This document shows, in pieces, positions 8,462 to 54,054 of a stretch of DNA of 64,000 bases (positions are counted from its first letter, which is position 1; every line of letters starts with the position of its first letter). The DNA comes from an uncultured Gammaproteobacteria bacterium (GTDB lineage Bacteria > Patescibacteriota > Patescibacteriia > UBA1558 > 2-01-FULL-52-15): NCBI GenBank assembly GCA_964540995.1, contig CAZIOU010000003.1, positions 576-64,575 of the forward strand. Reading direction: 5' to 3'. Made by a program: the position numbers and the translations under genes. The notes beneath the pieces are model-generated. The model was not told where the DNA came from and did no database searches. It saw only the letters and a program-made list of their open reading frames with translations.

Positions 8462-8553
8462 ATTGAACTAATATGGCAGAAATAAGGGATAAAATCAACT
8501 GACAATCTCATTGACAATAAGACTAAATAATTGTATCTTTTCCTAGCAAATAT

Positions 8554-8640
8554 TCGGGGATCGCCACCCTTCGCTAAAGCTTCGGGCGGCAGGTCTAATG
8601 GTAGCCCACCAGAGGCGGGCAGGGACGACACGCGCGAGAA
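8554..8640 (+). pseudogene. decayed tRNA-Gln-like fragment with internal hairpin insertion
   Basis: Begins TCGGGGATCG (identical to the tRNA-Gln 5' end at 9025) and contains a D-loop-like AGGTCTAATGGTAG, interrupted by CCACCCTTCGCTAAAGCTTCGGGCGGC. Confidence 0.4.
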
Positions 8641-8728
8641 TTGTATTTAAAGTCAGGTATTGGCAGAGAAGAGAAACAAAAAATTATTACTTACTCGGGG
8701 ATCGTCTAATGGTAGGACGACAGGTTCT
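8638..8728 (+). repeat. 91-bp direct repeat copy 1 (leader plus tRNA-Gln 5' half to the anticodon loop)
   Basis: Near-identical (2 mismatches) to 8968-9058. Ends ...ACAGGTTCT inside the anticodon loop, then diverges into a perfect palindrome CCTGCCTGCCGGCAGGCAGG. Confidence 0.7.
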
Positions 8729-8766
8729 CCTGCCTGCCGGCAGGCAGGGGTCCTTCAAAGGGTTCG

Positions 8767-9039
8767 ATGGAGTTTAAAATGAAACACTGGGTATATATTC
8801 TGATAAGTGAGACTACAAAGAATTGGTCATATGTAGGTAGTACTTCAAACTTGCAAGAACGCCTATATAGACATAGTATTGGTAGGGTTAGTTCTACGAA
8901 AAGCAAGAGACCGTTGAAATGTATTTACAGTGAGATTCATTCTGACAGAACGCAGGCTTATAAACGGGAATTGTATTTAAAGTCGGGTATTGGTAGAGAA
9001 GAGAAACAAAAAATTATTACTTACTCGGGGATCGTCTAA
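8767..9039 (+). CDS. GIY-YIG nuclease family protein (small YhbQ/UPF0213-like)
   Basis: 'WVYILISE..SYVGSTSNLQERLYRH' GIY-YIG core. The ATG lies in a degenerate T-arm-like GGGTTCGATGG; the C-terminus is encoded by repeat copy 2. Confidence 0.75.
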   Translation: MEFKMKHWVYILISETTKNWSYVGSTSNLQERLYRHSIGRVSSTKSKRPLKCIYSEIHSDRTQAYKRELYLKSGIGREEKQKIITYSGIV

Positions 9040-9058
9040 TGGTAGGACGACAGGTTCT
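8968..9058 (+). repeat. 91-bp direct repeat copy 2 (overlaps GIY-YIG 3' end and the intact tRNA-Gln 5' half)
   Basis: See copy 1. Confidence 0.7.
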
Positions 9059-9098
9059 GGTCCTGTTAATTGGGGTTCGAGTCCCTATCCCCGAACCA
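9025..9098 (+). tRNA. tRNA-Gln (anticodon CUG)
   Basis: Hand-folded: acceptor UCGGGGA/UCCCCGA, U8, D-stem GUC/GAC with loop UAAUGGUAG, anticodon stem ACAGG/CCUGU with loop UUCUGGU, T-arm UGGGG-UUCGAGU-CCCUA, discriminator A, encoded CCA. Confidence 0.85.
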
Positions 9099-9162
9099 CC
9101 AGCCAGAGGCTGGTAAGGCGCGGCTACAAGGTAACTACTTTTCATTTAAATTATTATCAAAA

Positions 9163-9303
9163 CTTTTAGGGACTCGAACCCGGGAAGGGGTCGGGAAACG
9201 GGAGTTTCCCGTGGCGGAAGTACTGAAACCGAAGGGTTTCAGAATCACGCTTTAGCGTGATTGGGTTCTAGGAGTGAAACGACGGAGTCCCTATCCCCGA
9301 ACC
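9163..9303. pseudogene. tRNA-Gln-derived fragments (inverted T-arm copy; degenerate copy with insertions ending GAGTCCCTATCCCCGAACCA)
   Basis: 9163-9185 is the reverse complement of the tRNA-Gln T-arm. 9195-9303 has UCGGGAA ... UUGGGUUC[16-nt insert]GAGUCCCUAUCCCCGAACCA, identical over the last 20 nt to the real tRNA 3' end. Confidence 0.4.
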
Positions 9304-9422
9304 ACCCTGCGTCGTCCAAAGACGACTTCGGGTGGCCTCTGGCCATCCGACAACCGAAGGTTGTGCAGGGTAGTAACCCGAAGCTTTAAAGCGAAGGGTT
9401 ACAGGTTAGCAATTTATACATA

Positions 9423-13440: not shown

Positions 13441-14985
13441 ATGGCATTGTTCAATATCGATATGACAAAAAACTCCAAAGATTACTTTCTCTACCGCTTC
13501 TGGGAGATTATCCCAGGCAGCTTAGTTTGGCTGACCTTTATCTTGGCTATTGGCTTGTCGCTCTGGCAGCCATTGTGGGGTATCTATTTCATCTTGATCT
13601 TTGATGTCTATTGGGTATTGCGGGTCACCTATTTGTTGGTTTTCCTTTTGCTGTCGTGGCGTAAATTTAGACAGAATATCAAACTCAATTGGTTCGCCAA
13701 ATTGAAGACAGAATTCGGTACTGGCGACAAAGTCTGGTCTGACTACCGCCATATAATTTTCTTGCCGATGTACAAAGAGCCTCTGTCGGTAGTGGAGGAT
13801 AGTTTCCAGAGTCTAATCGCTACTAACTATGATCACCGGAAGTTTCTCATCGTTTTGGCCGGCGAAGGTGGTGCGCAAGAACACTTTGAGCAAGTCTCGG
13901 CAGCTATCGTCACTAAATATAAGCAACACTTTTTCGATATTGTAGTTACCATTCATCCGCAAGACATTGAAGGTGAATTACGCGGCAAAGGCTCCAATCT
14001 TTATTGGGCGGGGAATAAGACCAAAGAGTATGTCGATCAACAAGGCTGGGATTACAAGCAGATTATTGTGTCCGCTTTTGACATCGATACTAGACCTCAC
14101 GAACAGTATTTCAGTTACTTGACCTATGCTTTCTTAACCAGTCCCAATCCCTATCGCACCAGCTTCCAACCGTTGACCTTATACCACAATAATATCTGGG
14201 AATCTGATCTGGTGACTCGGGTCGTAGCCAATTCGACCACCTTCTGGCTTATGACTGATCTGGCGCGAGCTGATCGGCTATTTACCTTCTCATCACATAG
14301 TATGAGCTGGCAGGCGCTGGTCGATGTCGGCTTCTGGCAAAATAATATCGTGACGGAAGACTCTCGCATCTTTTTGCAATGCTTGATCCACTATGATGGA
14401 GATTATCGGGTAACGCCGATGTATATGACGGTTTCGATGGACACTGTCTATGTCGGTTCGGTCTGGAAAAGTTTACTCAATCAATATAAGCAAATGCGCC
14501 GTTGGGCTTGGGGTGTCGAGCATTATCCTTATATGATGTGGCATTTCCGAGCTAATAAGAAGATTCCGCGTAAGAAGGCGCTAATCTATATTTTCAATCA
14601 GACGGAAGGTGTCTACTCTTGGGCTACCGCTCCAATACTAATCTTTATCATGGGTCATCTACCGCTGTGGATGGCCGATCGTATCAATGAGAATTCAGCT
14701 TTGGCACAGGCAGCACCGCTAATTTTGAGTAATTTGATGACGGCTGCCTTGGCAGGATTAGTCGTAACCGCTTTTATGAGTGTTTATATCTTACCCAAAT
14801 GTCCTTACACCGGAATTCGTAAGTTCTGGGCTTATAGTATGATGCTAGTGCAGTGGGTGTTTTTCCCGATTACTATGATCCTGTGGGGCTCGATACCAGC
14901 TATAGACGCACAAACACGCCTAATGGTAGGCGCGTATATGGGTTTCTGGGTGACAGAGAAGACGAGAGTGGGGAAGAGTAATTAG
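13441..14985 (+). CDS. membrane-embedded processive family-2 glycosyltransferase (cellulose/chitin-synthase-like)
   Basis: Multiple TM helices, 'SAFDID' (DxD), 'QYKQMRRWAWG' (QxxRW motif). Confidence 0.7.
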   Translation: MALFNIDMTKNSKDYFLYRFWEIIPGSLVWLTFILAIGLSLWQPLWGIYFILIFDVYWVLRVTYLLVFLLLSWRKFRQNIKLNWFAKLKTEFGTGDKVWSDYRHIIFLPMYKEPLSVVEDSFQSLIATNYDHRKFLIVLAGEGGAQEHFEQVSAAIVTKYKQHFFDIVVTIHPQDIEGELRGKGSNLYWAGNKTKEYVDQQGWDYKQIIVSAFDIDTRPHEQYFSYLTYAFLTSPNPYRTSFQPLTLYHNNIWESDLVTRVVANSTTFWLMTDLARADRLFTFSSHSMSWQALVDVGFWQNNIVTEDSRIFLQCLIHYDGDYRVTPMYMTVSMDTVYVGSVWKSLLNQYKQMRRWAWGVEHYPYMMWHFRANKKIPRKKALIYIFNQTEGVYSWATAPILIFIMGHLPLWMADRINENSALAQAAPLILSNLMTAALAGLVVTAFMSVYILPKCPYTGIRKFWAYSMMLVQWVFFPITMILWGSIPAIDAQTRLMVGAYMGFWVTEKTRVGKSN

Positions 14986-14992
14986 AAATAAG

Positions 14993-15087
14993 ATTCAATA
15001 ATCAAGCTACAATAATCAATATCAAATTGCAGAAAACGCCGGTGCACGAGTTTGAATATTGATTATTTCTGTATTGAATATTGTTTG
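14993..15087 (+). repeat. about 95-bp AT-rich repeat element ending in paired TTGAATATTG motifs
   Basis: TTCAATAATCAA..TGCAGAAAACG..GAGTTTGAATATTGATTATTTCTGTATTGAATATTGTTTG; a second full copy at 22051-22165. Confidence 0.6.
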
Positions 15088-15181
15088 AAATTTGGGTATT
15101 GATTATTGAACATTTCTCTGTATGCTGGATTGCTTCGCCCGCGGACGTTCTCGCAAAAGTGACAATAACTTGCTCTAGGCG

Positions 15182-16093
15182 CTAACTAGTAACTATCTTA
15201 TATCCGTTGGCAAATTCTGCCGCGGACATTTTATTTTTGCCTTCTGGTTGAATTTCCAATACTTGCAGGGCAGCGATGCCACAGGCGACCAATAGGTTGT
15301 CTCCCTCTTTCCACCAGGTACCAGCCGGTTTGTGATCGGGATTCTCGGCCAAGTCAGCTTTGGAAATGATAAATCGTTTGTCATTCCAGAAGAAATAAGC
15401 GCTGGGCCAAGGAGTATAGGCGCGAATTTTGTTGCGAACTTCTGTGGCAGCATCGTCCCACATGATCAGGCCGTCTTCTTTGGACAATTTCTTGCACAGG
15501 GTTGCGGCCACATGATTCTGTTCTTCAGCTGTAGTCACACCTTCTAAATACTGTGGTAATTTCTCCGCTAACAATTGAGCAGAAGTTTCCGCCAGACGTT
15601 TCTCGAGATCAAGATAATAGTCACTGGGGTAGATCGGTAATTCCCGCTGCGCTACGATAGGACCGTGATCCATCTGAGCGTCCAGTTGCATCAGCGTGAC
15701 GGCGGTTTCTGGCTCATTGGCTAGGAGCACTGATTGGATAGGAGAGGCTCCACGCCAGCGCGGTAGGCGAGAAGGATGGATATTGAGCGCCGGTAATTCC
15801 GAAAGTTGTAGTACGGCATCGGGTATAATCTTGCCATAAGCAATAACTAGAAAGGTGGCTGGTAAGTAGGGTTGGAGCGAAGCAATGAATGTTTCGTCTA
15901 GTGCTTCGGGTGTTAGGATAGACAGGCCTAATTCCGTGGCGACTTTCTTCACGGGCGACATATTGACTGATTGACCGCGGCCTTGTTCGGAATCTGGCTT
16001 GGTGATGACCGCGCGGATTAGCCCACGTTCAGCTAATTTCTTCAGACTAGGCACGGCGAATTCTGGGCTGCCCCAGAAGATGACTGGATTCAT
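15182..16093 (-). CDS. fmt: methionyl-tRNA formyltransferase
   Basis: 'IFWGSPEFAVPSL', formyltransferase core 'NIHPSRLPRWRGASPIQ'. Confidence 0.9.
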   Translation of the reverse strand: MNPVIFWGSPEFAVPSLKKLAERGLIRAVITKPDSEQGRGQSVNMSPVKKVATELGLSILTPEALDETFIASLQPYLPATFLVIAYGKIIPDAVLQLSELPALNIHPSRLPRWRGASPIQSVLLANEPETAVTLMQLDAQMDHGPIVAQRELPIYPSDYYLDLEKRLAETSAQLLAEKLPQYLEGVTTAEEQNHVAATLCKKLSKEDGLIMWDDAATEVRNKIRAYTPWPSAYFFWNDKRFIISKADLAENPDHKPAGTWWKEGDNLLVACGIAALQVLEIQPEGKNKMSAAEFANGYKIVTS

Positions 16094-16096
16094 GGG

Positions 16097-16594
16097 TTAG
16101 ATAGATAATAATGTATCAAGTTTCTTACGACCTTCGATGATGCTCTCGGCCTTATCGATGAAGAGTATGCCATTGAGATGGTCGACTTCATGCTGAATAA
16201 CGATAGCTTCGAAATTTTTGGCTTTGCCGATAACTTTTTTCCCGTTGAGATCAGTGTATTTGTAGCGGATTTTGGCTGAACGTTTGACTGTGCCGAAGAC
16301 TTCTGGGACAGAGAGACAGCCTTCTTCACTAACCATTTTTTCTTTGGAACTGAAAGTAATTTCAGGATTGATCATCGGGATCGCTCCATCTTTGCCATCC
16401 GTCACGACAATCAAGCGGATACTGTGATTGATCTGGGGCGCTGCTAGTCCGACACCTTTGAATTCATGCATAGCCACCATCATTTGTTCGGCTAGTATCC
16501 TGATGTCTGCAGACACAGTAGTAATAGCCTTCGCTTTGTGACGCAGGATTGGCTGGGGGACGGTGATTAAGGTGAGACCTGATCTTAGCTCCAT
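16097..16594 (-). CDS. def: peptide deformylase
   Basis: 'GVGLAAPQ', 'EGCLSVPE', 'HEVDHLNG'. Confidence 0.95.
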   Translation of the reverse strand: MELRSGLTLITVPQPILRHKAKAITTVSADIRILAEQMMVAMHEFKGVGLAAPQINHSIRLIVVTDGKDGAIPMINPEITFSSKEKMVSEEGCLSVPEVFGTVKRSAKIRYKYTDLNGKKVIGKAKNFEAIVIQHEVDHLNGILFIDKAESIIEGRKKLDTLLSI

Positions 16595-18315
16595 TGGTAG
16601 GGATTAATTTCAATCAATATCCTATTATTGTAGGTTTTGATGAGATTGTCAATGAAGTCGTGGGATAAGCTACCACGAATAATCAGATAGGTGTCGTCAC
16701 GGACAGCTATTGTTGTGCCGGTCTGTGATTCGATGCGTGTAGTCAGTTCTGATTGAATCGTCGGTGCATGGGCTTTATCCTTGATAAAAATCTTATAACT
16801 AGTGGCAAAAGGTGGGTAGTTAAATTCTTGTCGGAAGGCTAATTCTTCGGAAATGAAAGCTTTGAAGTTAGTCAGTGATTGATAGACATAATGAGTCGGT
16901 GTGGCAGTTTGGATAAGGAGTGACTGACTTCGTACGAGTAGCTGCCGCAAGTGTTGGCGGAGCTCTTCGGTAGCATTAAAGTCTGGACGCCACAGCTCAC
17001 CATCGGGATGGATCGCTACCGTGAGATCAAATCTTAGTTCAGTGGATAATATCTTGGAAGTTGCTATGACAATGTCAGCCTGATGAATGGTTGATGTTAA
17101 CCGCTGACTCAAGATAGAAACTTTTTTATCTGGCCAGAGCTCTTGCACTTCGCGTACCAAACGACTTAAACCACTGGAGCGTAATTTGAGCTTGGTACTA
17201 TAGCAGCGGGGACAAGTCATCACGGCTTCGTGTTGCAACTGGCAGTTCCAACAACGCAGATCACGACTTTGGGGTTGGTAACTTAAAGCCCGGTGACAGC
17301 GAGGGCATTCGGCAATCCATTTACAGCGTCCACAAGCCACCATATTGGCTGTGCCGTAGTGATTGAGATAGAGAAGGGTTTTGGGGCTATGAACAGCGGC
17401 CTCTTGTGCTGCTTGTGATAGTAGTCCGCGCCCACCAGAATTGCGCTCACTGGTCATGTCGACAGTGGTTACGGCTTTGCTTTTGTGTTCTATAGATTTG
17501 ACCGGTAGAGCAGTCTGACGGGTAGCTTGGAATAGATTGCAATTGGGAGACGGTGAGGCTAGAAGTAATTTACAGCCGTATAGTCTCTGATAATGACCGA
17601 TGAAATCACTCAGATGCAAGCGAGGATTCTGTTCAGAACGATGCAACTGGGTATTCTCAGCATCGATAACGACAAGCTGTTGTAGATTGTGAAAGGGTAA
17701 AAACAGGCTATGAAATGTCCCGATGATAACAGGAGCAGCATGGGATTGCTCCCAAGCTTGCCAATAGGCTAATTTCTCCACCTTCGATGGTAGTACGAGT
17801 GCTTCGGGGGCAATAGTTCGCGCCAAAGGCAGTAGATAATATTCTGGTACGATGATCAGCGTCTGACCGTGAGCGGCTTTGATGGCTGCTTGGACGTAGG
17901 TTGAAAGACTGCTCCAATCATCATAGATCGCCCAACTATGATACGTATCGGGAGTTACCTCGTTGCTGATGGTGGGTTCGGTTATTGCCGGTGAGTTTTT
18001 GCGTTTTGGTTCATTAGCTACAAATAATGGCAGTAAAGTCGAAGCTGATAGATGATACAGTTCAGCTAAATGTCGAAGGAGTTCAATCTGTTGTCGAGTT
18101 AATTCGGTTGCCGCGATTGAGACGATTGATTGAATCTTGTCCCATGTACTAGAGCTGACAATTTCTAAAACGACGCCAGTGAGATGCTGACGACGGAACG
18201 GTACTTTGACTAGTGAACCAGGATGAATATCTGATTCTAGATGTTGCGGAATCTTATAGTCAAAATAATCCAAGTTCGCCGGCAAACGGCGGAGTGGAGC
18301 GACACGAGCGATCAT
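16585..18315 (-). CDS. priA: primosomal protein N' (PriA)-like with degenerate helicase ATPase motifs
   Basis: PriA N-terminal 3'-DNA-binding region ('DYFDYKIPQ..GSLVKVPFRRQHLTGVV') and the Cys4-Cys4 zinc region ('CGRCKWIAECPRC..CWNC..CPRC'). Walker A is replaced by 'AAHGQTLIIVPE' and DExH by 'VIDAEN'. Confidence 0.65.
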   Translation of the reverse strand: MIARVAPLRRLPANLDYFDYKIPQHLESDIHPGSLVKVPFRRQHLTGVVLEIVSSSTWDKIQSIVSIAATELTRQQIELLRHLAELYHLSASTLLPLFVANEPKRKNSPAITEPTISNEVTPDTYHSWAIYDDWSSLSTYVQAAIKAAHGQTLIIVPEYYLLPLARTIAPEALVLPSKVEKLAYWQAWEQSHAAPVIIGTFHSLFLPFHNLQQLVVIDAENTQLHRSEQNPRLHLSDFIGHYQRLYGCKLLLASPSPNCNLFQATRQTALPVKSIEHKSKAVTTVDMTSERNSGGRGLLSQAAQEAAVHSPKTLLYLNHYGTANMVACGRCKWIAECPRCHRALSYQPQSRDLRCWNCQLQHEAVMTCPRCYSTKLKLRSSGLSRLVREVQELWPDKKVSILSQRLTSTIHQADIVIATSKILSTELRFDLTVAIHPDGELWRPDFNATEELRQHLRQLLVRSQSLLIQTATPTHYVYQSLTNFKAFISEELAFRQEFNYPPFATSYKIFIKDKAHAPTIQSELTTRIESQTGTTIAVRDDTYLIIRGSLSHDFIDNLIKTYNNRILIEINPYQWS

Positions 18316-18316
18316 A

Positions 18317-19096
18317 TTAGCCGAGGTGAATTAGCGCATTATAATAGCCAATACCGACAGCGTGCTCGAAGCTAAGTGGCTGGACACTATAATTCTTGGT
18401 CTGTAGTAGACCGAGGGCCATGACGACCGGTCGTAGACCGCATATTGATTGGACCAAAGGATTATCGGTTGGGAGAGCTAGAAGTGCTTTGGTGTCATGA
18501 CGCTCAATCCAGGTGATTATCTTACGGTCGAGAGCGATAGCTTCAGCGTTAGACTGATTCTTGGTGTCATGACTAAGGTCGGCCGAGACAAGAACAGCTA
18601 CTCTTTGATTGGTCAGGTCGAGTGATTCGCGCCAGCGCTCACCGCAGGTATAGTGTGTTAGTAGATCCAATTCATGTGCCGTACCGACAGAAATTACGGG
18701 TATATTCCCAAGTATATCTAGTAAATGAAAGAGGGGTACTGAAGTGGCGTGATCGAGTTCACCGGTTTCTATGGCCACCATCGGAACGGCTGTTTCTATC
18801 GCTTGACGCAAGCTGTAGGCCAAACCGATATTGTTCTGCATCTGGCCATAGGGAGTGAGATCGCCAAAATCACGAAAGGTGACCGTCAAAGTAGTATTTT
18901 GATTGATACTCATGGTGCCAGCTGGAGCTTTGACATGCGGTGAAATAACCAAAATAGTCTCTGGCTTGGAAGCATAGAGTTCCTGTCGGATTTGTTTGAG
19001 ACCGGCCATGGTTGCCGCAATTTGATGGTCGGTGCCTTTTCCGATGGCCGGTATGGAGACGACCGGATGTGCCACGATAGCCGCGAAGCAAATCAT
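18317..19096 (-). CDS. LigB-family (class III extradiol dioxygenase / MEMO-like) protein
   Basis: 'IVAHPVVSIP' and 'ILVISPHVKAP' resemble LigB/DODA signatures; weak. Confidence 0.45.
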   Translation of the reverse strand: MICFAAIVAHPVVSIPAIGKGTDHQIAATMAGLKQIRQELYASKPETILVISPHVKAPAGTMSINQNTTLTVTFRDFGDLTPYGQMQNNIGLAYSLRQAIETAVPMVAIETGELDHATSVPLFHLLDILGNIPVISVGTAHELDLLTHYTCGERWRESLDLTNQRVAVLVSADLSHDTKNQSNAEAIALDRKIITWIERHDTKALLALPTDNPLVQSICGLRPVVMALGLLQTKNYSVQPLSFEHAVGIGYYNALIHLG

Positions 19097-19097
19097 G

Positions 19098-20492
19098 TTA
19101 GAAGATTATATCAGGACCTTGAGGGTGAAGATTCAGTACTTTGTCTGAGACAGTTATCACATTGGTAAACTTGTAGCCCAGCGCAGTGAAGGTCTTTTCA
19201 TCGGGGATACGAAGACGCATTCCATTGGAGACAACGAAGACATCGGGTATATCCTTGGCTTTAAGAAGCATTCCGTCTTTAAAGAAGATCGGATCACCAT
19301 CGGTGAAGCTTTCTAAGGTCTTCTGGCTAGCTGGATAGATCTTGACCTTGGGGTAATTGGCCTTGAGGAGTTCTCGGGCCCATATAGGATGTTTGATATT
19401 GGCTTCAACATAGTAAACACCTCCGGTCGTGCGATCTTGAAGTAAAGCACCGGTAGGATAATTATCGAGTTCAGTGATATCAGCACCGTCCGGAATAAGT
19501 GCTAGCTGTTCGGCTGTGATATCGTCAGCTTCGGCCGGATTGAAGCCAATCAACTTGAATACTTTGGGTGAGGCGATCTTGCGTTTGTACTGATCGGCGA
19601 TCATATAGTAGGTCTTGTCCGGGCCGACCACTAGCGAATTGGCAGCATAGCGGACAGGTTCACCGGTCTCATAAGCATCAATGTCAGTTTTTTCGACGGT
19701 TAAGATTTGAGTGGTGCTATAGCGCGAAGCAAAAGCAGCCTTAGTAGCAAAGAGACGCTTCTTACCGTCTTGGATTAGCCAGATATCTTTATCTTTCTTG
19801 ACTTGCAAGATGGAGCCATCGGGGAAGTGTGATTTGGCGAAATATTTATCCCACAGCGTCTTGAATAGCTCATTGCCGTGAAGATGAGGTGTGTAGGTGT
19901 AGAGAGCGGCGGTACTGACATTTTTGGGAGTGACGGTAGCGCATTTGCCATCGGCGCTGTTATTGCAGATGCGGTAGGTTTTGCCTGGCTGATAGTAATA
20001 TTCATCAATGTTATCTAAGTAGTAGCGGAATTGGGCAGCGGCACTGATAACTTGTTTATGGAAGCCGCGCCAACGTTCGGAGCAGGGCGCGGTGTCGGGA
20101 CAGCCATAACCGGCAGCATAATCGAGAGCTCGTTGACTGGGATTAGCAGAAGTCAGTAGACTTTGCTCTTTCTGGATCAGGATCAGGAGAAATTTGGGGT
20201 TGATCTGATATTGATGAGCGGCTCGATAGATCATCTCAGTCGCAGAGACTAAGCGACCCTCGCCAGTATCCATGAAGTAATTCTTCAAGAAGCTGCCGCT
20301 CTGATTCAAGAAGTCTAAAATGCCGGTTTGTGATAGAGCGTCGGCATTGGTAAGTTCGCTATCGGATATAAGATAGTTGTAGTCGACAGTCGAAGTCGTG
20401 GTTGAGGCTGTTTGCGCTTGAGCCGTATCTAACGGTAAGATACACACAGCGATGAGAATAAAAAGCGCGATAGCGCGGTTAAATTGATTCAT
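19098..20492 (-). CDS. secreted hypothetical protein (signal peptide)
   Basis: N-terminal 'MNQFNRAIALFILIAVCILPLDTAQA'. Confidence 0.55.
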   Translation of the reverse strand: MNQFNRAIALFILIAVCILPLDTAQAQTASTTTSTVDYNYLISDSELTNADALSQTGILDFLNQSGSFLKNYFMDTGEGRLVSATEMIYRAAHQYQINPKFLLILIQKEQSLLTSANPSQRALDYAAGYGCPDTAPCSERWRGFHKQVISAAAQFRYYLDNIDEYYYQPGKTYRICNNSADGKCATVTPKNVSTAALYTYTPHLHGNELFKTLWDKYFAKSHFPDGSILQVKKDKDIWLIQDGKKRLFATKAAFASRYSTTQILTVEKTDIDAYETGEPVRYAANSLVVGPDKTYYMIADQYKRKIASPKVFKLIGFNPAEADDITAEQLALIPDGADITELDNYPTGALLQDRTTGGVYYVEANIKHPIWARELLKANYPKVKIYPASQKTLESFTDGDPIFFKDGMLLKAKDIPDVFVVSNGMRLRIPDEKTFTALGYKFTNVITVSDKVLNLHPQGPDIIF

Positions 20493-20583
20493 GTTACAAA
20501 ATATTTATTATTCTACCACAGATAACGGTTGCTCTCAACCTTTTTCTTTACAATTATTTGATTTACTGGCATAATATCGAACT

Positions 20584-21144
20584 ATGTCTGATGCCTTACG
20601 ATTATTTATAGCTTTGGAGCCTGATAGTGGCGTTCAGAAGCAAGCAGCTAAGGAGTTTGCTCGCTTTGGTTTCGGTACTGAAGTCAAACCAACCGACAAG
20701 GAGCAGTTACACTCCACACTCAAATTTTGGAGTCATTTCCCACTTCAAGACCTGGCTCAACTCTTACAAGCATTAGAAGATGTGGCACAGCGTCATCCAG
20801 TGCTTACTTTGGATTTCAATCAGCCAGTAATCTTCGGCGGGCAACAAGCTCGTGTCCTAGCACTCGAAGCCGAGAAGAATGAGGAATTAGTTGATCTGTA
20901 TAATGATCTGGAGGAGACCTTGGTGGAATACGGCTTGGCTGACAGGGAAGGTAGATTGTTCCGCCCGCATCTGACATTGGCGCGAGTCAAAGATTATTTT
21001 ACTGAAGAAGACAGGCAGAAGTTTGAAGCTTGGAAGCCGGACATCTCGGCAGTCCATGAAGATTTGAAATTATATTCCAGTATTCTCACTCCCAAAGGAC
21101 CGGAGTATGATCAGTTGGGGAGTTTTCCGCTGCAGAATGAGTAA
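20584..21144 (+). CDS. thpR: RNA 2',3'-cyclic phosphodiesterase (2H phosphoesterase, LigT/ThpR)
   Basis: Two HxT/S motifs, 'HSTLKFW' and 'HLTLARV'. Short leader after a CATAAT-like -10. Confidence 0.8.
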   Translation: MSDALRLFIALEPDSGVQKQAAKEFARFGFGTEVKPTDKEQLHSTLKFWSHFPLQDLAQLLQALEDVAQRHPVLTLDFNQPVIFGGQQARVLALEAEKNEELVDLYNDLEETLVEYGLADREGRLFRPHLTLARVKDYFTEEDRQKFEAWKPDISAVHEDLKLYSSILTPKGPEYDQLGSFPLQNE

Positions 21145-21256
21145 TTTAATATCGTCTTTGCGAGAACGTCTGCGGGCAAAGCAATCTAGTATGCAGGAAA
21201 TTTCAAGCTAGACTGCCACGGCCTTGCTAGGCCTCGCAGAGACAGAATGAAAATAA

Positions 21257-21295
21257 ATCACCCCACCGACCAAAGTCGACGGGGTGTTTGTTATA
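21257..21295. terminator. bidirectional hairpin terminator
   Basis: CACCCCACCGAC-CAAA-GTCGACGGGGTG with U-rich flanks on both strands. Confidence 0.55.
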
Positions 21296-21306
21296 GAACG
21301 AATTAT

Positions 21307-21978
21307 CTACTTCTTCCCAGCTGGTGTCGGGAAGTAGCGAGCATAGGTCGCATCTTCAGGAATGAGCTTCGCCAGCTTGAAATCATCGAAGGCCTGCTTG
21401 AACTTGGCCTGAAGGGCTGGCAGCTCGATGCTAAGAGGATCAAGGTCGCTATCACGCCGCAGCTTGTCGAGCTCGATGGCTAGATTCTTGAGCTTACTCT
21501 CAGCCCGCATGTGCAGGACGGTCCAGTAGCTACTAACCACTTCAATGACTGAAATGTTCAGATGTTCAGCTACTGTCTTGACGATTGACTCGAGATTGTT
21601 AGTGCCGGCGTCATGGTTATCCATTGTTACAATTGAGGCAACATACATGACAACCAACAGCAATAAAATCGCAACAAACAACCAGCCATCGAAATTTTCC
21701 GGAACCATAATGAGCGGCGAGGCGAACCAAACGATGGCTGCAATTGTCGAGAGCATAGCCGAGTTCTGGCAAAAGTCATATATTGCCAGTGCTTCGAGCG
21801 GATCTTTTCCTTTGACGAGAAAATTTTTCCGCCAGTGTGAGTCTGGGGGCAGTACGATACCTGCCTTTTTGAGATCACGTTCCAATGACATGTGAAAGAA
21901 CCTCTGCTGCTGTGAAGAATCAATGGGTGCTTCCGGCACCGTCTGATAGAGGCTTCCGGCCACGATCAGAACCTTCAT
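21307..21978 (-). CDS. hypothetical 2-TM membrane protein
   Basis: 223-aa ORF with a central pair of hydrophobic helices. Confidence 0.5.
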   Translation of the reverse strand: MKVLIVAGSLYQTVPEAPIDSSQQQRFFHMSLERDLKKAGIVLPPDSHWRKNFLVKGKDPLEALAIYDFCQNSAMLSTIAAIVWFASPLIMVPENFDGWLFVAILLLLVVMYVASIVTMDNHDAGTNNLESIVKTVAEHLNISVIEVVSSYWTVLHMRAESKLKNLAIELDKLRRDSDLDPLSIELPALQAKFKQAFDDFKLAKLIPEDATYARYFPTPAGKK

Positions 21979-22039
21979 TGATGATACCGTAGCAGCGACG
22001 GTAATAGAGGATAATTACCACGATTATCACTAAATGTCA

Positions 22040-22510
22040 AATATAGGGTAATACTCAAGTTTCAATAATCAATAGCCAAACAATAATAAATAATTAAGTT
22101 AAAATGCAGAAAACGTTAAAGAATGAGTTTAAATATTGATTATTTCTGCGTTGAATATTGTTTGCCTGCCCGTCTTGGCAAGCCAAAGGCGCGTCGGGCG
22201 GGGAATTTGAGTATTGTTTATTGAATATTTATAAGCTAGACTGCTTCGTCGACCAAGCTCGCCTCGCAGAGACAGAGACTGCTTTGTTTATTGAATATTG
22301 GACCTTTCTCTGGTATCTTTAGCCCAGAATAGACAATAATTATCAATATTCAAGCCACAATAGTCAAACAATAATCTCAGCCAAAGGCTGATCGTCCTCT
22401 GGACGAAAACAATAACTAATAATCAATTTTCAATAGAAGAAAAATACATAAAGAGTTTGAATATTGATTATTTCTGTATTGAATATTGTTTGTAACTTGA
22501 GTATTGTTTA
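22040..22510 (+). repeat. 470-bp AT-rich non-coding region packed with TTGAATATTG / CAATATTCAA motifs and two about 40-bp direct repeats
   Basis: GAGTTT(G/A)AATATTGATTATTTCTG..TTGAATATTGTTTG at 22125-22165 and 22453-22493. GAGTATTGTTTATTGAATATT at 22209 and 22500, the latter abutting the tagA ATG. Confidence 0.6.
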
Positions 22511-23239
22511 TTGAATATTATGAAAAAGATTGAGCTCCTCGGAGTCAAAATAGCTACGCTAGAGCCAACCGAAATCGATAGCACTTTGGCTGATTTTTTG
22601 CATACACCTGGTCTCAAACAGATTGTCACGGTTAATCCAGAATTTCTCGTTACAGCTCAAGAAGACAGTGAATTCAAAGCTATTCTGAACTCGGCTGATC
22701 TGGCCTTGCCGGACGGTGTCGGCATCATCTACGTCAGTAAAATATTAGGAAAGAAAATTTCACGAACCAATAGAATGACAGGTGTGGAGCTGACGCACTC
22801 ACTACTGAAGCTGGCTGAAGCTGAACAAAAAACCGTGGAGATCGTTTTGCCCGCCAATGCACTTTCAACCCAAGAAGAAATTTTAATCAACGTGAAAAAA
22901 CTGAATCCCCAGAGCATCGTTAAAGTTATTGCAGCTGCAGATGTCCAAGAACAATCACCACGAGCAGATATAATCTTCGTAGCGCTGGGAGCTCCGGAGC
23001 AAGAGAAGTGGATTTGGAGTCAGCGAGAGAAATTATTGGGCACGAAGATTGCCGTCGGAGTAGGGGGGACGTTTGACTTCATATCTGGTAAAATACCAAG
23101 AGCACCACAGTGGCTGCGTTCTCTGGGCTTGGAATGGCTCTATCGCCTCTACCAAGAGCCAAGGAGAAGGTTTAAGCGCATTATACGGGCGGTTATCGTG
23201 TTTCCGTGGCTCGTACTCACTAAGAGTAATAATCAATAA
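22511..23239 (+). CDS. WecB/TagA/CpsF-family glycosyltransferase
   Basis: 'LLGVKI', 'VTVNPEF', 'LPDGVGI'. Confidence 0.85.
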   Translation: MNIMKKIELLGVKIATLEPTEIDSTLADFLHTPGLKQIVTVNPEFLVTAQEDSEFKAILNSADLALPDGVGIIYVSKILGKKISRTNRMTGVELTHSLLKLAEAEQKTVEIVLPANALSTQEEILINVKKLNPQSIVKVIAAADVQEQSPRADIIFVALGAPEQEKWIWSQREKLLGTKIAVGVGGTFDFISGKIPRAPQWLRSLGLEWLYRLYQEPRRRFKRIIRAVIVFPWLVLTKSNNQ

Positions 23240-23366
23240 TCAAATTCCAATTTACAAACAATATTTAATCTTCAAATCCCAAACAGCAATGCTTTTAGGT
23301 TTGTCTGTATTGAATATTTGATATTGTTTGGCACTTGATTATTGAGTCTTGAAATTTCATTTTTGT

Positions 23367-24806
23367 ATGTCAAAAATTGTAACCCGCTTCGCACCATCAC
23401 CCACCGGCTATCTTCATCTCGGCGGTCTTCGTACTGCCTTGTATTCCTATCTGTGGGCCAAGAAGCACGATGGCCAATTTATCCTCCGTATCGAAGATAC
23501 TGATCAGAAACGTAAAGTGGAGGGCGCAGAAGAGCAATTAATCGGCGTTTTGAGTCAGTTGGGTATGAAACATGATCAATTATTCCGTCAGTCCGATCGA
23601 CTGGATCTCTATCGTGAAGCGGCCGAGAAGCTAATTGCTTCTGGCCATGCCTATCGCTGTTACTGCAGTGAAGAGCGCCTCGAAGAATTACGAGCGCGTC
23701 AGACAGCTGAACATCAGGTGCCACGCTATGACGGCCGTTGCCGTTCGCTATCGGCCGAAGAAATTCAATCGCAGGCTGGCAAGCCGAGTGTGGTCCGTTT
23801 CCGTATGCCTGACAATCGTGTCATCACGATGAGAGACTTTATTCGTGGCACTATTACCGTGAAAAGTGAAGATTTAGACGATTTCATCTTGCTCAAGTCT
23901 GATACCTGGCCTACCTACCATCTAGCGGTCGTTGTGGATGATTCTTCTATGGGAGTGACACACATCATCCGAGGAGATGAGTGGTTGTCGTCGCTACCCA
24001 AGCATCAATTACTGTATGAAGCTTTTGGTTTAGAAGTACCAACGTTCGTGCATCTGCCGTTATTACTCAATCCTGACAAATCGAAACTGTCCAAACGTCA
24101 GGGCGATGTGGCGGTGGAAGATTATCTGGCTAAGGGTTATCTCAAAGTAGCTCTGATCAACTACGTGTCGTTACTTGGCTGGCATGCTTCTAGCGATGAA
24201 GAGTTTTTTACCTTGGAACAATTGATCAAGGAATTCGATCTAGATCGTCTGCAGAAATCGGGTGCCGTCTTTGATGTCGAGAAACTTAATTGGTATAACA
24301 GTCATTATATTCGTCAGGCGGTTGAGCAAAATATTCCGGCGTATTACCAAGAGGTACTGGCTTTCGTCCGAGCCAACGTCTTGCCTGGAGTCGACGAGTC
24401 ACTGATGGAGAAGATTGTTAAAGTGTATTCGCCTCGTTTAGAGTATTTGATGTTATTAAAAGATCGTTGTAGCTATATTTTTGAATTGCCTGACTATCCG
24501 GCGGAGATGTTAGTTTTCAAGAAAAGCACCAAAGAAGTTACCACTAAGGGTTTACACGCTGTTATCAAAGCTTTGACCGACGTCAATGTGACATGGTGGG
24601 TGGCGGTAGAACAGTTAGATTCTTTATTGAAAGAAGTTGTTACCATGGAGGGATTAACCTTCGGCGATGTCTTATGGCCAGTGCGAGTTGCTTTGAGTGG
24701 TGTAGAGCAGAGCCCATCACCGGCAGAATTGGCCTGGATCTTGGGTCGTGATGAATCATTGCGTCGTTTACAGTTGGCTAGCGACAAGCTGGGAACTATG
24801 GTATAA
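23367..24806 (+). CDS. gltX: glutamate--tRNA ligase
   Basis: 'RFAPSPTGYLHLGG' HIGH region, 'KLSKRQG' KMSKS region. Start moved to the MSKIV Met. Confidence 0.95.
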   Translation: MSKIVTRFAPSPTGYLHLGGLRTALYSYLWAKKHDGQFILRIEDTDQKRKVEGAEEQLIGVLSQLGMKHDQLFRQSDRLDLYREAAEKLIASGHAYRCYCSEERLEELRARQTAEHQVPRYDGRCRSLSAEEIQSQAGKPSVVRFRMPDNRVITMRDFIRGTITVKSEDLDDFILLKSDTWPTYHLAVVVDDSSMGVTHIIRGDEWLSSLPKHQLLYEAFGLEVPTFVHLPLLLNPDKSKLSKRQGDVAVEDYLAKGYLKVALINYVSLLGWHASSDEEFFTLEQLIKEFDLDRLQKSGAVFDVEKLNWYNSHYIRQAVEQNIPAYYQEVLAFVRANVLPGVDESLMEKIVKVYSPRLEYLMLLKDRCSYIFELPDYPAEMLVFKKSTKEVTTKGLHAVIKALTDVNVTWWVAVEQLDSLLKEVVTMEGLTFGDVLWPVRVALSGVEQSPSPAELAWILGRDESLRRLQLASDKLGTMV

Positions 24807-33294: not shown

Positions 33295-33579
33295 ATGGCA
33301 AAAGGTATTACTAAGTCTCAAATGCTTGAGGCATTAGCCACCAAGACCGGTCACTCCAAGAAGGATGTGGCTGCAATGTTGGAAGCTGTAGCTAACCTAG
33401 CTTACAGCGAAGTTAAGAAAAACGGAGAAATTACCATCCCAGGAATTGGTAAATTGGTCAAGAAGCACCGTGCAGCTCGCATGGGTCGCAACCCGGCCAC
33501 TGGCGCAGAGATCAAAATCCCAGCCAAAACCGTAGTAAAGTTCAAGGTTGCAAAGGCTGCCAAGGACGCTATTCTATAG
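33295..33579 (+). CDS. hup: DNA-binding protein HU
   Basis: 'GFGKF', arm 'RMGRNPATGAEIKIPA'. Confidence 0.9.
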   Translation: MAKGITKSQMLEALATKTGHSKKDVAAMLEAVANLAYSEVKKNGEITIPGIGKLVKKHRAARMGRNPATGAEIKIPAKTVVKFKVAKAAKDAIL

Positions 33580-33649
33580 GAATTAGCTTGTAGGTTGTAG
33601 CCTGTAGGGACAGGTCTTGACCTGTCCTGTAGGTTAGTAGCAAATCAAA

Positions 33650-40734: not shown

Positions 40735-40798
40735 AGTCAGTATTAAGTATAGTATTAAGTATAATGTATTAAGTATGATGTATTAAGTATGATGTATG
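40735..40798. repeat. tandem repeat of about 13 bp (GTATTAAGTAT unit, about 5 copies)
   Basis: AGTATTAAGTATAGTATTAAGTATAATGTATTAAGTATGATGTATTAAGTATGATGTATG directly upstream of the serS start. Confidence 0.7.
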
Positions 40799-41170
40799 TC
40801 AGGCTTTGAGCGTTCTGATAAGACCATTGATGAGTTTATGGGTCGTTATAATTCCTTGATCAAGCAGATCATATTCGGGTTTTGTTATCTGGTTAATATC
40901 ATGACAGATATAAATTTGACTTTGAAGTTCCGTTAATGATCCGAGTGCGATAGCTAAGAGTTGAATTTTGTCTTTCTTACCCCTACGAGAAAACGATTCT
41001 GCAATATTGGAAGTGACTGATACAGTTGCACGTCGCATCTGCGATGTTAGTCCGAATCGTTCAGTGTCAGGAAAAGTCGATGTTATGCGATAAATGCGAT
41101 TTACAATTTTGGCTGCTTCTTGCCAAGCGTACAAATCTTTGAATGACGTTATCTTCTGATTGGCGCACAT
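40799..41170 (-). CDS. four-helix-bundle protein (family formerly called 23S rRNA intervening-sequence protein)
   Basis: 'FKDLYAWQEAAKIVNRIYRIT..FP..ERFGLTSQMRRATVSVTSNIAE' is typical of the family. Confidence 0.8.
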   Translation of the reverse strand: MCANQKITSFKDLYAWQEAAKIVNRIYRITSTFPDTERFGLTSQMRRATVSVTSNIAESFSRRGKKDKIQLLAIALGSLTELQSQIYICHDINQITKPEYDLLDQGIITTHKLINGLIRTLKA

Positions 41171-45668: not shown

Positions 45669-45834
45669 AAAATAGAAGAAAGTAGAATGTAGAAAGAAGT
45701 AAGGGAAAGAAGCTAGAGTTTGCCCTTCCCTAATAACTAATAACGAATGACGAATATCAATTCAACCAGCTAGATTGCTTCCCTCATTGTCATGGTTCTA
45801 CAAGCTCACCATGACAATTCGGTCGCAATGACAG

Positions 45835-53910: not shown

Positions 53911-54054
53911 ATGGGCAGTATAGCAAATTAGACTAATTTATCTAGTGTTTTGGCAAGGGGAAGATAGGGAGCTCGCAAAGGGTAATTCGTAATACGTAAT
54001 GCGTAATTACGTGCTACACCTTACGTTGTACGCCGTACGTCTTACGCTTTACGT

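Follow-up and report, generated by a model that had tools for sequence, protein, structure and literature searches.

A homologous family of heptamer-built palindromes in the gene spacers of a Patescibacteria genome

The decamer TTGAATATTG, densely repeated around a tagA-like gene, is the by-product of a 7-nt periodicity: it consists of one TTGWWTA heptamer and the first three bases of the following unit. The heptamers build the arms of F1, a family of four homologous, imperfectly palindromic, non-coding copies (A-D) of 125-190 nt. F1 is one of many palindrome families found in roughly 40-50% of the spacers of this small genome. It belongs to a known but unexplained class of REP/MITE-like, intergenic palindromes made of heptamer repeats, within which it is specific to one clade. 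F1 is probably a small, mobile-looking hairpin repeat, which fills gene spacers, swaps among them and turns over at the DNA level. The window analysed was a 64 kb stretch of one genome; the relatives compared with it, found via gltX, were short Patescibacteria contigs (loci designated L001, L002, etc.).

Results

Exact TTGAATATTG occurs seven times in the window, where 0.27 ± 0.53 occurrences are expected, and none of 100 shuffles reached seven. With up to one mismatch there are 29 matches (6.9 expected), 22 of them within three motif-rich spacers at 15.0, 22.0-22.5 and 23.2-23.35 kb. TTGAWTATTG was found 14 times (0.57 expected), 13 times inside the spacers 14986-15181, 21979-22519 and 23240-23348. 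All sequences quoted in the original prediction are present where it had placed them. Its count of at least ten decamers in 22040-22510 is correct if one mismatch is allowed (13 matches) but not for exact matches (five), whereas GAGTATTGTTTATTGAATATT does occur twice as announced, at 22209-22229 and 22499-22519, the latter touching the ATG of tagA (22520).

The arms of F1 have a period of 7 nt. Their lag-7 self-match was 0.50 (0.48-0.51 per copy) versus 0.32 (0.317) in shuffles (z 9.3), with harmonics at lags 14 and 21. In each copy TAWWCAA-type heptamers make up the left arm and complementary TTGWWTA heptamers the right arm, with a short unique loop (..GCAGAAAACG..GAGTTT) between the two; the copies are long imperfect palindromes because their arms are built of complementary heptamers. 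Homology is not confined to the arms, the alignment of the copies running through the loop. The right arms of copies A, B and C are 90-93% identical, the left arms 73-76%, and every copy has stop codons in all six frames. Termini are not fixed and differ between the copies, and F1 displayed neither a clear target-site duplication nor a GTAG or CGTC tag. The composite element of about 95 bp described earlier is real, but it is longer than had been thought and has four copies, not two and a tail.

All four copies lie on the + strand. Copy A (14987-15125; nhmmer E 5.6e-26; fold -27.3 kcal/mol, z -1.6) separates a 514-aa ORF from fmt, the two converging with their 3′ ends. It comprises a CAATAAT-type left arm, the loop TTGCAGAAAACGCCGGTGCAC, a 67-nt right arm (GAGTTTGAATATTGATTATTTCTGTATTGAATATTGTTTG..TTGATTATTGAACATT) and the tail TTTCTCTGTAT. 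Adjoining it at 15128-15168 is a unit of a second family, a GC-rich hairpin (GATTGCTTCG..N..CTCGCAAAAGTGACAA) also represented in L003, L004, L082 and L162. This unit has an inverted partner at 21150-21196 (58 nt, 79% complementary). Downstream of LigT, at 21145-21250, two inverted units of the GC-rich family make one long hairpin (-40.6 kcal/mol, z -4.3). The 223-aa gene has a canonical intrinsic terminator at 21259-21286 (- strand). Conserved also in L002 and L162, it shows that ordinary terminators exist separately from the palindromes.

Copy B (22046-22327; nhmmer E 9.3e-27; fold z -1.2) occupies the spacer from which the 223-aa gene and tagA diverge. It is full length, and two inserts are nested in it. 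Its terminal tail, GGACCTTTCTCTGGTATCTTTAGCCCAGAAT, has homologous sequence in L004 and in the flank of copy A. The first insert, in the right arm at 22165-22203, is a 39-nt GC-rich hairpin (CCTGCCCG...CGGGCGGGG; -20.2 kcal/mol); the corresponding position is empty in copies A and C, and the hairpin occurs only once among all sequences compared. The second, at 22230-22299, consists of a GC-rich hairpin-family unit 56 nt long (AAGCTAGACTGCTTCG..CTCGCAGAGACAGA) and a duplicate 14-mer: a perfect direct duplication of GTTTATTGAATATT (22216-22229 and 22286-22299) surrounds the nested unit.

Copy C (22328-22519; nhmmer E 2e-26) is the fullest palindrome (-50.6 kcal/mol, z -7.0) and is orthologous to the single copy of L002. 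The last base of its right arm immediately precedes the tagA ATG. Nested in its left arm at 22378-22408 are the mini-hairpins CAGCCAAAGGCTG and CGTCCTCTGGACG, flanked by the similar units AAACAATAAT and AAACAATAAC; both fold within the long hairpin. The tagA-like gene (22520-23239, + strand; WecG/TagA/CpsF glycosyltransferase, PF03808 1.8e-38) has no Shine-Dalgarno sequence, as is the case for most genes of the window. Copy D (23218-23354; nhmmer E 1e-10; fold -26.6 kcal/mol, z -2.8) is diverged. It occupies the spacer between tagA and gltX (glutamyl-tRNA synthetase, 23367-24806, + strand) and overlaps the 3′ end of tagA, its left arm encoding the final codons (..KSNNQ*). D-type orthologues were found in L002, L164 and L166. 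The neighbours of the arrays are fmt, def, priA, LigB, LigT, tagA and gltX.

The window has 38 spacers, and about 14-20 of them contain similar palindromes with a period of 7 or 8, every one built on a heptamer of its own. A significant periodic tract was detected in 14 of the 38, the best lag being 7 or 8 every time, and nearly all arrays reported by TRF had periods of 7/14 or 8/16. Intergenic self-match was 0.306 at lag 7 and 0.289 at lag 14, compared with about 0.26, and the signal was absent from coding sequence. In 13 of 16 cases the better fold of a palindrome is that of the + strand, regardless of gene orientation, with 60 G-U pairs on the + strand and 24 on the - strand; this bias fits a DNA-level or mutational asymmetry rather than selection at the mRNA level. 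The array-loop-array layout recurs in other phyla, also in an isolate genome, which rules out an assembly artefact.

F1 is restricted to a narrow clade: over 2.24 Mb its nhmmer profile matched only the window, L001, L002, L162, L164 and L166. At orthologous spacers syntenic relatives carry different families or nothing, and heptamer units change between orthologous elements. The 505aa/fmt spacer contains F1-A, a GTTATTAG palindrome or GC hairpins. The LigT spacer has GC hairpins in the window, a CGTAAT heptamer palindrome in L002 and F1 in L162, L164 and L166. Directly before tagA, the filled site (..TTAGCCCAGAAT, F1, ATG) contrasts with an empty one (..TTAGCCATAAGT followed by ATG) in L162, L164, L165 and L167; in relatives with 77-80% identical TagA the element is missing or lies in another spacer. 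Between tagA and gltX there are 22 nt, a GC hairpin or a D-type element, the spacer measuring 130-200 nt when long. The spacers that hold the GC hairpin unit CTGCCRCGGCCTTGCTAGGCCTCGCAG likewise differ between the window and L162.

Discussion

Of the three interpretations offered in the original prediction, that of a small non-autonomous repeat family is supported, and it widens to a genome-wide population of heptamer-array palindromes. Replication slippage would enlarge and alter the arrays in 7-nt steps; we infer this from the periodicity and from the unit changes between orthologues, not from length polymorphism. A DNA-level process may copy whole or half elements between neighbouring spacers, candidate routes being single-strand hairpin transposition or, where arrays are similar, gene conversion or template switching. 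The elements would be retained because the spacers that separate terminators from starts tolerate them, in a setting where they close six frames with stops and most genes do without a Shine-Dalgarno sequence. Any influence on tagA and gltX expression would then be incidental.

Several observations count against this interpretation. No mechanism by which F1 moves came to light: it displayed no fixed termini, clear target-site duplication or cognate enzyme. Its 'local' spread (P about 0.036) rests on three spacers in 64 kb. The more distant L004 has an F1-type array, TTGATTATTGATTATTTTTCTG, 22 nt ahead of its tagA; among 161 loci this 16-mer was found outside the window's organism in L004 only. 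F1 sequence has thus long remained near the 5′ side of tagA, behaviour not required of a purely neutral element. Conservation within the window is much stronger in right than in left arms, and function, not gene conversion, could be the reason. Finally, the convergent 505aa/fmt site, which is terminator-less, has kept a palindrome in both the window and L002.

Over-represented intergenic heptameric repeats are known as STRR of heterocystous cyanobacteria, GGGAATC of Xanthomonas and GGGGAYT of Nostoc (PMC4692102); for heptamer over-representation and the idea of polymerase slippage, this source cites Mrazek (2007). Like F1, these are degenerate tandem 7-nt units limited to spacers, some arrays being inverted pairs capable of forming stem-loops; as here, a genome has several unit types, and the repeats vary strongly in length and sequence from one close relative to another (PMC4692102). 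In F1, unlike in these repeats, two arrays and a unique loop constitute one homologous 125-190-nt unit whose spacer differs by genome, the AT-rich TTGWWTA units are not G-quadruplex formers, and the host is a Patescibacteria MAG. We found no report of such heptamer arrays in Patescibacteria in the literature. REP/REPIN and MITE families (PMC3116915) resemble F1 in being non-coding, intergenic, hairpin-forming, multi-copy and limited to narrow lineages, in inserting into or adjoining one another and in having filled and empty sites. F1 differs from them in its internally periodic arms and in the lack of fixed terminal inverted repeats, target duplication, GTAG/CGTC tag and, within the window, a RAYT/IS partner.

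In REPINs, RAYTs mobilise inverted pairs of REP sequences (PMC3116915). F1 might be a conventional non-autonomous transposon, either a MITE or a REPIN-like hairpin that a transposase from elsewhere in the genome, such as an enzyme of the IS200/IS605-RAYT type working on single-stranded hairpins, mobilises in trans. We consider this unlikely. Dispersed, homologous, palindromic and non-coding copies, filled and empty sites without obvious target duplication, nested insertions (one flanked by a 14-nt duplication) and same-family elements at non-orthologous sites of different genomes all agree with it. Single-strand transposition would also agree with the better folding of the + strand, which would be the template for lagging-strand synthesis if the leading strand is the one with positive GC skew. 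However, the copies differ in their termini, the GTAG/CGTC tag is absent, the left and right arms have different histories, and the copies are clustered within 8.4 kb instead of being scattered. No transposase of whatever type was identified among the about 70 ORFs of the window, the sole candidates being a XerC/D-type recombinase and two small GIY-YIG proteins.

Quite unlikely, in our view, is a role at the RNA level, in which the palindromes serve as terminators, 3′-end stabilisers or intercistronic insulators and any heptamer family suffices. The folds of copy C and of several other palindromes are far stronger than those of shuffles, and many palindromes immediately follow a canonical terminator. 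At the 505aa/fmt site, which has no canonical terminator, the window and L002 carry palindromes of different families. Nevertheless, the region of copy A has no predicted U-tract terminator, canonical terminators are present separately and conserved, and copies A and B fold no better than shuffles. For - strand genes the fold of the sense strand is the weaker one in 9 of 10 cases. Palindromes also occur within the rpsM-rpsK-rpsD-rpoA-rplQ cluster, where strong termination would be harmful, and relatives with a 22-nt spacer indicate that the tagA-gltX element is dispensable.

We give little credence to the idea that the arrays are platforms for an abundant protein reading the 7-nt register, such as a DNA-bound HU/IHF nucleoid protein or, on single strands, a protein of the cold-shock or S1 type, and would then organise the chromosome or tune the translation of genes devoid of a Shine-Dalgarno sequence. 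Comparable proposals have been published (PMC2700814, PMC4679880). Paired hepta- and octanucleotide arrays of Geobacter metallireducens are annotated as 'global regulator binding sites' classes 1-3 (PMC2700814). They can be likened to F1 in pairing 3-5 tandem 7-9-nt units with opposite-strand units at variable distance, and to the window in their dozens of species-specific copies and in having period-7 and period-8 families in one genome. Unlike F1, they are short, GC-rich and interpreted as IHF/HU sites, and relocation or nested insertions are not evidenced there (PMC2700814). TAACTGA repeats of Beggiatoaceae, cyanobacteria and Bacteroidetes, located next to start codons, were proposed to be S1/Csp/CsrA sites (PMC4679880). 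As with the palindromes of the window, they occur in ribosomal-protein operons too and the same spacer can be bare in relatives; they are, however, direct repeats of a single dominant heptamer in fixed orientation to the gene (PMC4679880), whereas the window has many heptamers, palindromic and without fixed polarity. The relatedness of heptamers across families (GGTACTC, GTTACTA, GTTATTA, ATTGATT), the arrays that often touch start codons of genes mostly without a Shine-Dalgarno sequence, and an HU gene within the window speak for a platform. Against it, presence is not conserved at orthologous sites, and the polarity of the start-proximal arm is inconsistent (G/T-rich before tagA, C/A-rich before most - strand genes). 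No binding protein was identified, and HU is universal, yet most HU-bearing bacteria lack such arrays.

The original prediction had also proposed operators for a dimeric regulator of the transferase gene. That the TTGAATATTG arrays are operators, a promoter or a leader for a regulator controlling tagA and gltX is very improbable. Three of the four right arms are upstream of a + strand gene, one touching the tagA ATG, the right arm is the best-conserved part, and L004 also has an F1-type array before tagA. But with a 7-nt period the decamers are unfit to be sites on a single helical face, copy A has a 3′ gene end on either side, copy D shares sequence with the 3′ end of tagA, and the empty pre-tagA sites of L162, L164, L165 and L167 contradict this reading. 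Moreover, no + strand sigma-70-like promoter was predicted in 21979-22519, promoter-like sites (8 versus 4.6 ± 1.8 in shuffles) were not clearly above expectation, no regulator gene is adjacent, and apart from the three spacers TTGAATATTG stands upstream of no other gene in the 64 kb, an outcome that the prediction itself had named as speaking against it.

Virtually no credence can be given to replication or partition iterons, also suggested previously, or to a TIGR-type guide-RNA array, known in Patescibacteria (PMC12045711): dense short repeats are all that favours them, and period and gene content contradict both, as no rep, par or Nop-domain gene is among the window's roughly 70 ORFs, the cumulative GC skew climbs monotonically with no switch near the arrays, and the TIGR period of about 36 nt (two alternating 8-12-nt repeats plus 9-nt spacers) has no TRF counterpart here.

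Structure of the F1 repeat family

F1, a family of non-coding imperfect palindromes, is present in the window as four homologous copies in direct orientation, identified by repeat search and alignments: A (14987-15125), B (22046-22327), C (22328-22519) and D (23218-23354). The left arm consists of TAWWCAA/CAATAAT-type units, the loop of unique sequence (..AAATGCAGAAAACG..AGA.GAGTTT) and the right arm of TTGWWTA units, which are complementary to the left arm. The reverse-complementarity of the arms makes every copy a long, imperfect palindrome. The elements measure 125-190 nt and carry no GTAG/CGTC tag; the arms are complementary along their length, the ends differ from copy to copy, and all six reading frames of every copy are interrupted by stop codons. 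Each arm is an array of degenerate heptamers, with a lag-7 self-match of 0.48-0.51 per copy versus 0.317 in shuffles (z 9.3) and further peaks at the harmonic lags 14 and 21. F1 is most likely a clade-specific, non-coding palindromic repeat with heptamer-array arms, and most likely one member of a genome-wide population of elements of this sort, with quick turnover at the DNA level.

The genes near F1 are housekeeping genes (fmt, def, priA, a LigB-family gene, LigT, the WecG/TagA/CpsF transferase gene tagA, and gltX). Copy A lies between convergent 3′ ends, copies B and C share one divergent spacer, and copy D lies between co-directional genes and encodes the last codons and the stop of tagA; F1-type elements can give genes new C-termini and stop codons in this way. 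The neighbours of 223, 514 and 464 aa have no Pfam or NCBIfam annotation, and a PDB sequence search with the 223-aa protein gave no match.

The decamer TTGAATATTG, which the original prediction had singled out, consists of a full heptamer and the opening three bases of its neighbour. Its exact form occurs seven times in the 64-kb window versus 0.27 ± 0.53 expected from dinucleotide-preserving shuffles, and TTGAWTATTG 14 times versus 0.57 expected, with all but one of the 14 inside the spacers 14986-15181, 21979-22519 and 23240-23348. With up to one mismatch, 29 decamers were counted (6.9 expected), 22 of them in the three F1 spacers. All sequences quoted in the prediction are present where it had placed them. 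At least ten decamers had been claimed for the tagA leader; this holds if one mismatch is allowed (13 matches) but not for exact matches (5). GAGTATTGTTTATTGAATATT is present exactly twice, as predicted, and its second occurrence ends at the base immediately preceding the tagA ATG. The accompanying interpretation is partly supported: of the three options offered, the small repeat family is borne out, whereas the regulatory and replication options do not hold.

The copies differ in folding. Copy C folds at -50.6 kcal/mol (z -7.0) and copy D has a z of -2.8, whereas the folds of copies A (z -1.6) and B (z -1.2) are not better than those of shuffles. Right-arm identity among A, B and C is 90-93% within the window, and left-arm identity 73-76%; by the same global alignment, in which low-complexity sequence inflates the values, the right arm of copy C is 78% identical to that of its orthologue in the syntenic contig L002. 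The closer identity among A, B and C than between orthologous C copies suggests that the right half was recently copied or converted. In an RNAalifold alignment of six F1 copies, compensatory changes were found in only three of 26 pairs, a signal too weak to argue for selected structure; a DNA palindrome would give the same result.

Occupancy of orthologous spacers

The relatives found with GltX and TagA are Patescibacteria (Uhrbacteria, Komeilibacteria, Magasanikbacteria, Parcubacteria); the names of some of the closer MAG records are plainly wrong. Syntenic contigs were L002 (GltX 91% identical), L166 (TagA 81%) and L162, L163 and L167 (79-80%), and, more distant, L165, L164 and L004 (77-78%), L003, and L082 (TagA 67%). 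The last was the only moderately close contig in a TagA-based metagenome scan, and GAGTTTRAATATTGATTATTTCTG had no exact match in the metagenome collection. An nhmmer profile of F1, run against 2.24 Mb, matched only the window, L001 (the same organism), L002, L162, L164 and L166.

The occupants of orthologous spacers change between these genomes. The spacer between the 505-aa gene and fmt holds copy A and one GC hairpin in the window, a GTTATTAG-family palindrome in L002, and two GC hairpins in L162 and L004. Between LigT and the 223-aa gene lies a pair of GC hairpins in the window, and in L002 a CGTAAT palindrome that shares 72% identity with window 53982-54073. L162 and L164 have a full F1 copy there; L166 carries this same F1 copy and lacks the 223-aa gene.

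In the spacer between the 223-aa gene and tagA, the window has copies B and C, and L002 an unrelated GAAGTAG palindrome and one F1 copy, orthologous to C. L162, L164, L165 and L167, whose TagA proteins are 77-80% identical, have no F1 there: ..TTTTGCTATGGTTAGCCATAAGT runs directly into the tagA ATG, giving the empty-site form ..TTAGCCATAAGT then ATG, and the spacer holds the GC hairpin unit found in the LigT/223-aa spacer of the window. At the filled site the window and L002 have homologous ..GCTATCTTTAGCCCAGAAT, then F1, then the ATG; the L002 copy is diverged and lacks the decamer. L004 has a short F1-type array 22 nt before tagA which aligns with the end of copy B; among 161 loci, no other matched TTGAWTATTGAWTATT apart from those of the window's own organism. 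From this array it follows that F1 sequence has long been near the 5′ side of tagA.

The tagA/gltX spacer holds copy D in the window and D-type elements in L002, L164 and L166, that of L164 with an extra nested GC insert. The same spacer is reduced to 22 nt in L003, L162, L163 and L167, and holds a plain GC hairpin in L004 and L165. Among the D-type orthologues, heptamer units are exchanged and total length is kept. F1-type elements could serve as strain markers. They also terminate short-read contigs: L001, a Logan contig identical to window 22463-24637, stops inside copy C, so F1-type repeats break assemblies.

Nested GC-rich hairpins

Smaller GC-rich hairpins are nested inside the F1 palindromes. 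A unique 39-nt hairpin (22165-22203) sits in the right arm of copy B, and two mini-hairpins (22378-22408) in the left arm of copy C. Copy B also contains a 56-nt unit (22230-22285), flanked by a perfect 14-nt duplication, of a separate GC-hairpin family with the form (A)GAYTGCTTCG..N12-25..CCTCGCARWGAC, in which the ends are conserved and the centre is variable and often self-complementary. Another unit of this family adjoins copy A (15128-15168), two inverted units form one hairpin of -40.6 kcal/mol at 21145-21250, and a further one lies at 45790-45834. Units were also located in L003 (11689-11800), L004 (2200-2245 and 7690-7770), L082 (1760-1810) and L162 (9305-9345). The family is common to this Patescibacteria clade and occupies different spacers in different genomes. 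It had no Rfam match, and a literature search with its end motifs returned unrelated primer sequences only. A different hairpin, GGACAGGTCTWGACCTGTCC, turns up in spacers that are not orthologous: in the window (33602-33624) it is enclosed by TAGG-type arrays downstream of the HU gene (33295-33579), and in L004 (9950-9975) and L165 (885-910) it lies in the tagA-gltX spacer.

Heptamer-array palindromes in the window and in other bacteria

F1 is one of many arrays. TRF found almost exclusively periods of 7/14, plus 8/16 at 58-61 kb, and the lag-7 and lag-14 excess was seen in spacers and not in coding sequence of the window. A significant tract was present in 14 of 38 spacers, the best lag being 7 or 8 in all; six further spacers, the F1 spacers among them, peak at lag 7. 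At least six heptamer or octamer families can be told apart, each with its own unit (GTTATTAG/CTAATAAC; GGTACTC/GAGTACC; CGTAAT/ATTACG; TAGG-type; GGAATT; TTAATTGA), and most have the layout array, loop, reverse-complement array. Palindromes of the GTTATTAG family lie at 39.4, 45.7 and 55.1 kb. A small, gene-dense Patescibacteria genome thus carries a large, fast-changing population of intergenic palindromes from a shared pool, from which the nested smaller GC hairpins also come.

The cleanest array of the window, GTATTAAGTATGAT repeated 4.3 times with 93% matches (40740-40797), fills the spacer between serS and a gene for a 23S-rRNA-IVP/Avd-like four-helix protein (40799-41170). The genes rpoA, rplQ, rpsD, rpsK and rpsM usually form one operon. 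Here, period-8 and period-7 palindromes (58173-60915) occupy the rpoA/rplQ, rpsD/rpsK and rpsK/rpsM spacers and the region upstream of rpsM, and arrays in neighbouring spacers are complementary to one another (e.g. 59719-59755 and 60635-60671). Heptamer arrays abut the start codons of at least 12 genes. GGAG, GAGG or AGGA is found within 25 nt of the start in only about a dozen of 67 ORFs, and a Shine-Dalgarno sequence is absent from most genes, with or without an array at the start codon; the leaders are mostly G-poor.

The cyanobacterial repeats STRR1-3, of heterocystous cyanobacteria, have the heptamers CCCCART, TTGGTCA and CAACAGT, and very small mobile repeats in Nostoc were reportedly described by Elhai et al. 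in 2008. Heptameric repeats are over-represented in bacterial spacers, as in cyanobacterial STRRs, Xanthomonas GGGAATC and Nostoc GGGGAYT; some form inverted pairs, and they vary from one sister species to another (PMC4692102). TAACTGA repeats abut start codons in Shine-Dalgarno-poor genomes (PMC4679880), and Geobacter metallireducens has paired hepta- and octanucleotide arrays on opposite strands (PMC2700814).

F1 resembles the STRR-type repeats in the 7-nt tandem period of its arms, in the confinement of the period excess to spacers, in the several unit types of the genome, and in occupants of orthologous spacers that vary between close relatives. Unlike strict STRR1-3, the units here are TTGWWTA and others, and the host is a member of the Patescibacteria. 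F1 is therefore a new family of a known but unexplained kind. It adds one more phylum to the scattered heptamer repeats of bacteria; new are the Patescibacteria example, the evidence that array-loop-array is one relocatable unit, and the second layer, of GC mini-hairpins nested in the copies. Though the phenomenon is real and dynamic, this instance does not overturn expectations.

Heptamer palindromes with the array-loop-array layout, many of them carrying a small GC hairpin in the loop, were also seen around gltX and tRNA genes at nine other loci (L034, L036, L041, L042, L054, L066, L071, L007, L023) from the isolate Pelotomaculum propionicicum, Peptococcaceae, Anaerolineae, other Chloroflexota and other Patescibacteria MAGs. 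Saccharibacteria-labelled MAGs show this layout too.

Origin and possible roles of F1

The arrays would grow and change through slippage by 7 nt at a time, which has been put forward to account for the excess of heptameric repeats in general (cited in PMC4692102). Spread to nearby spacers would occur by template switching, gene conversion or hairpin transposition. The orthologous filled, empty and swapped sites can be used to study how heptamer repeats originate; with an uncultured host, F1 does not make that origin directly testable.

For the movement step, it is possible that F1 is a canonical MITE or REPIN. The elements are short, non-coding and multi-copy (four in the window plus those of L002, L162, L164 and L166), and the site before tagA exists in filled and empty forms. 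The 64-kb window, however, encodes no transposase, including the Y1 transposase of REP/REPIN-RAYT systems; those also need a tagged palindrome of 20-40 nt, set as an inverted doublet, and a RAYT gene with the repeats on its flanks, and F1 is longer and untagged. Its arms are complementary throughout but its ends differ between copies, and no clear target duplication is seen at the tagA site, the 14-nt duplication at the nested insert of copy B being the only one observed.

Action as an RNA terminator or stabiliser, or as a protein-binding platform, is possible as a secondary role, for which F1 provides no positive support here. Among 16 palindromes of the window the + strand folds better than the - strand in 13, irrespective of the direction of the flanking genes, and G-U pairs number 60 on the + and 24 on the - strand; for - strand genes the mRNA-sense fold is weaker in nine of ten. 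The + strand is the G-rich strand across the whole window. The bias comes from this wider set, as the F1 copies alone are indecisive. The asymmetry looks replicative or mutational, and counts against selection for mRNA hairpins.

F1 does not have the form of an intrinsic terminator, in which a U-tract follows a short GC-rich stem. No terminator was predicted in 14800-15300. Of the sites predicted in 21000-23500, one is a 12-pair hairpin (21259-21286), a conserved terminator that stands apart from F1, and the only one inside any F1 copy is a 6-pair nested mini-hairpin (22377-22391, - strand); canonical terminators are separate from F1. Two pairs of terminator-like hairpins elsewhere in the window (11517-11552/12091-12126 and 61542-61581/63138-63177) are 97-98% identical and enclose segments of about 0.5 kb and 1.6 kb with short unannotated ORFs only. 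An IHF site was dropped as a candidate, only the half-site WATCAA/TTGATW being present by eye. Rfam gave only tRNA-Gln at gathering score in the window and nothing at E ≤ 1 in 21000-23500.

We consider it unlikely that heptamer-array palindromes are the products of a specific, undescribed mechanism rather than a passive by-product of slippage. Such a mechanism would work with a ruler of 7 nt (sometimes 8), make arrays symmetrical about small GC hairpins and place copies of entire or half elements in adjacent spacers, and might act on the strand exposed during replication. It would account for the occurrence of one layout in Patescibacteria, Chloroflexota, Peptococcaceae, Geobacter, cyanobacteria and others, as well as the + strand fold bias, the nested mini-hairpins and the homogenised right arms, and would make F1 and its relatives a tractable comparative system for the origin of bacterial heptamer repeats.

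That the arrays are operators of a transcription factor, as the original prediction proposed, is contradicted by several observations. The short array before tagA in L004 speaks for an operator, but copy A lies between convergent 3′ ends and copy D over the last codons of tagA, not in a promoter or leader, and the sites are not kept upstream of orthologous tagA (L162, L164, L165 and L167 lack the element). The 7-nt period is neither dyad nor helically phased, and the motif is absent elsewhere in the window. No regulator gene is nearby; F1 is still present in L166, which lacks the unannotated 223-aa neighbour. A promoter scan predicted no + strand promoter before tagA, with counts not clearly above shuffles. 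What looked like dense 'half-palindromic' motifs near an envelope gene is the trace of a repeat element with period 7, which removes the tempting regulatory reading.

Replication iterons or a partition site, also suggested in the prediction, find no counterpart in the window, which has no rep or par gene and a cumulative GC skew that rises monotonically with no switch. A TIGR-Tas guide array, with alternating edge and loop repeats of 8-12 nt, 9-nt spacers, units of about 36 nt and an adjacent Nop-domain gene (PMC12045711), does not fit either, since TRF found no array of about 36-nt period in the window and Pfam no Nop match, although Pfam could miss very divergent Tas proteins.

Repeats at the tRNA-Gln and GIY-YIG genes

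The tRNA-Gln(CTG) gene (9025-9098) is preceded by a small GIY-YIG ORF (8767-9039), weakly matching a group I intron endonuclease, whose 3′ end runs into the tRNA gene. This 3′ end and the 5′ half of the tRNA are duplicated with 97% identity (8635-8728 and 8965-9058), and the upstream partial tRNA copy has a perfect 20-nt palindrome, CCTGCCTGCCGGCAGGCAGG, in the anticodon loop. A third tRNA-like 5′ fragment (8553-8632) is split by two GC mini-hairpins, and the tRNA-Gln 3′ end is repeated at 9283-9303, within the region 8553-9305. A second small GIY-YIG gene (56461-56787, in the region 56090-57018) has on its flanks a 37-nt repeat in three copies (56305, 56382 and 56846) as well as GGTCGAAACGACAGAGC-type repeats, with which it may form a small mobile GIY-YIG cassette family.
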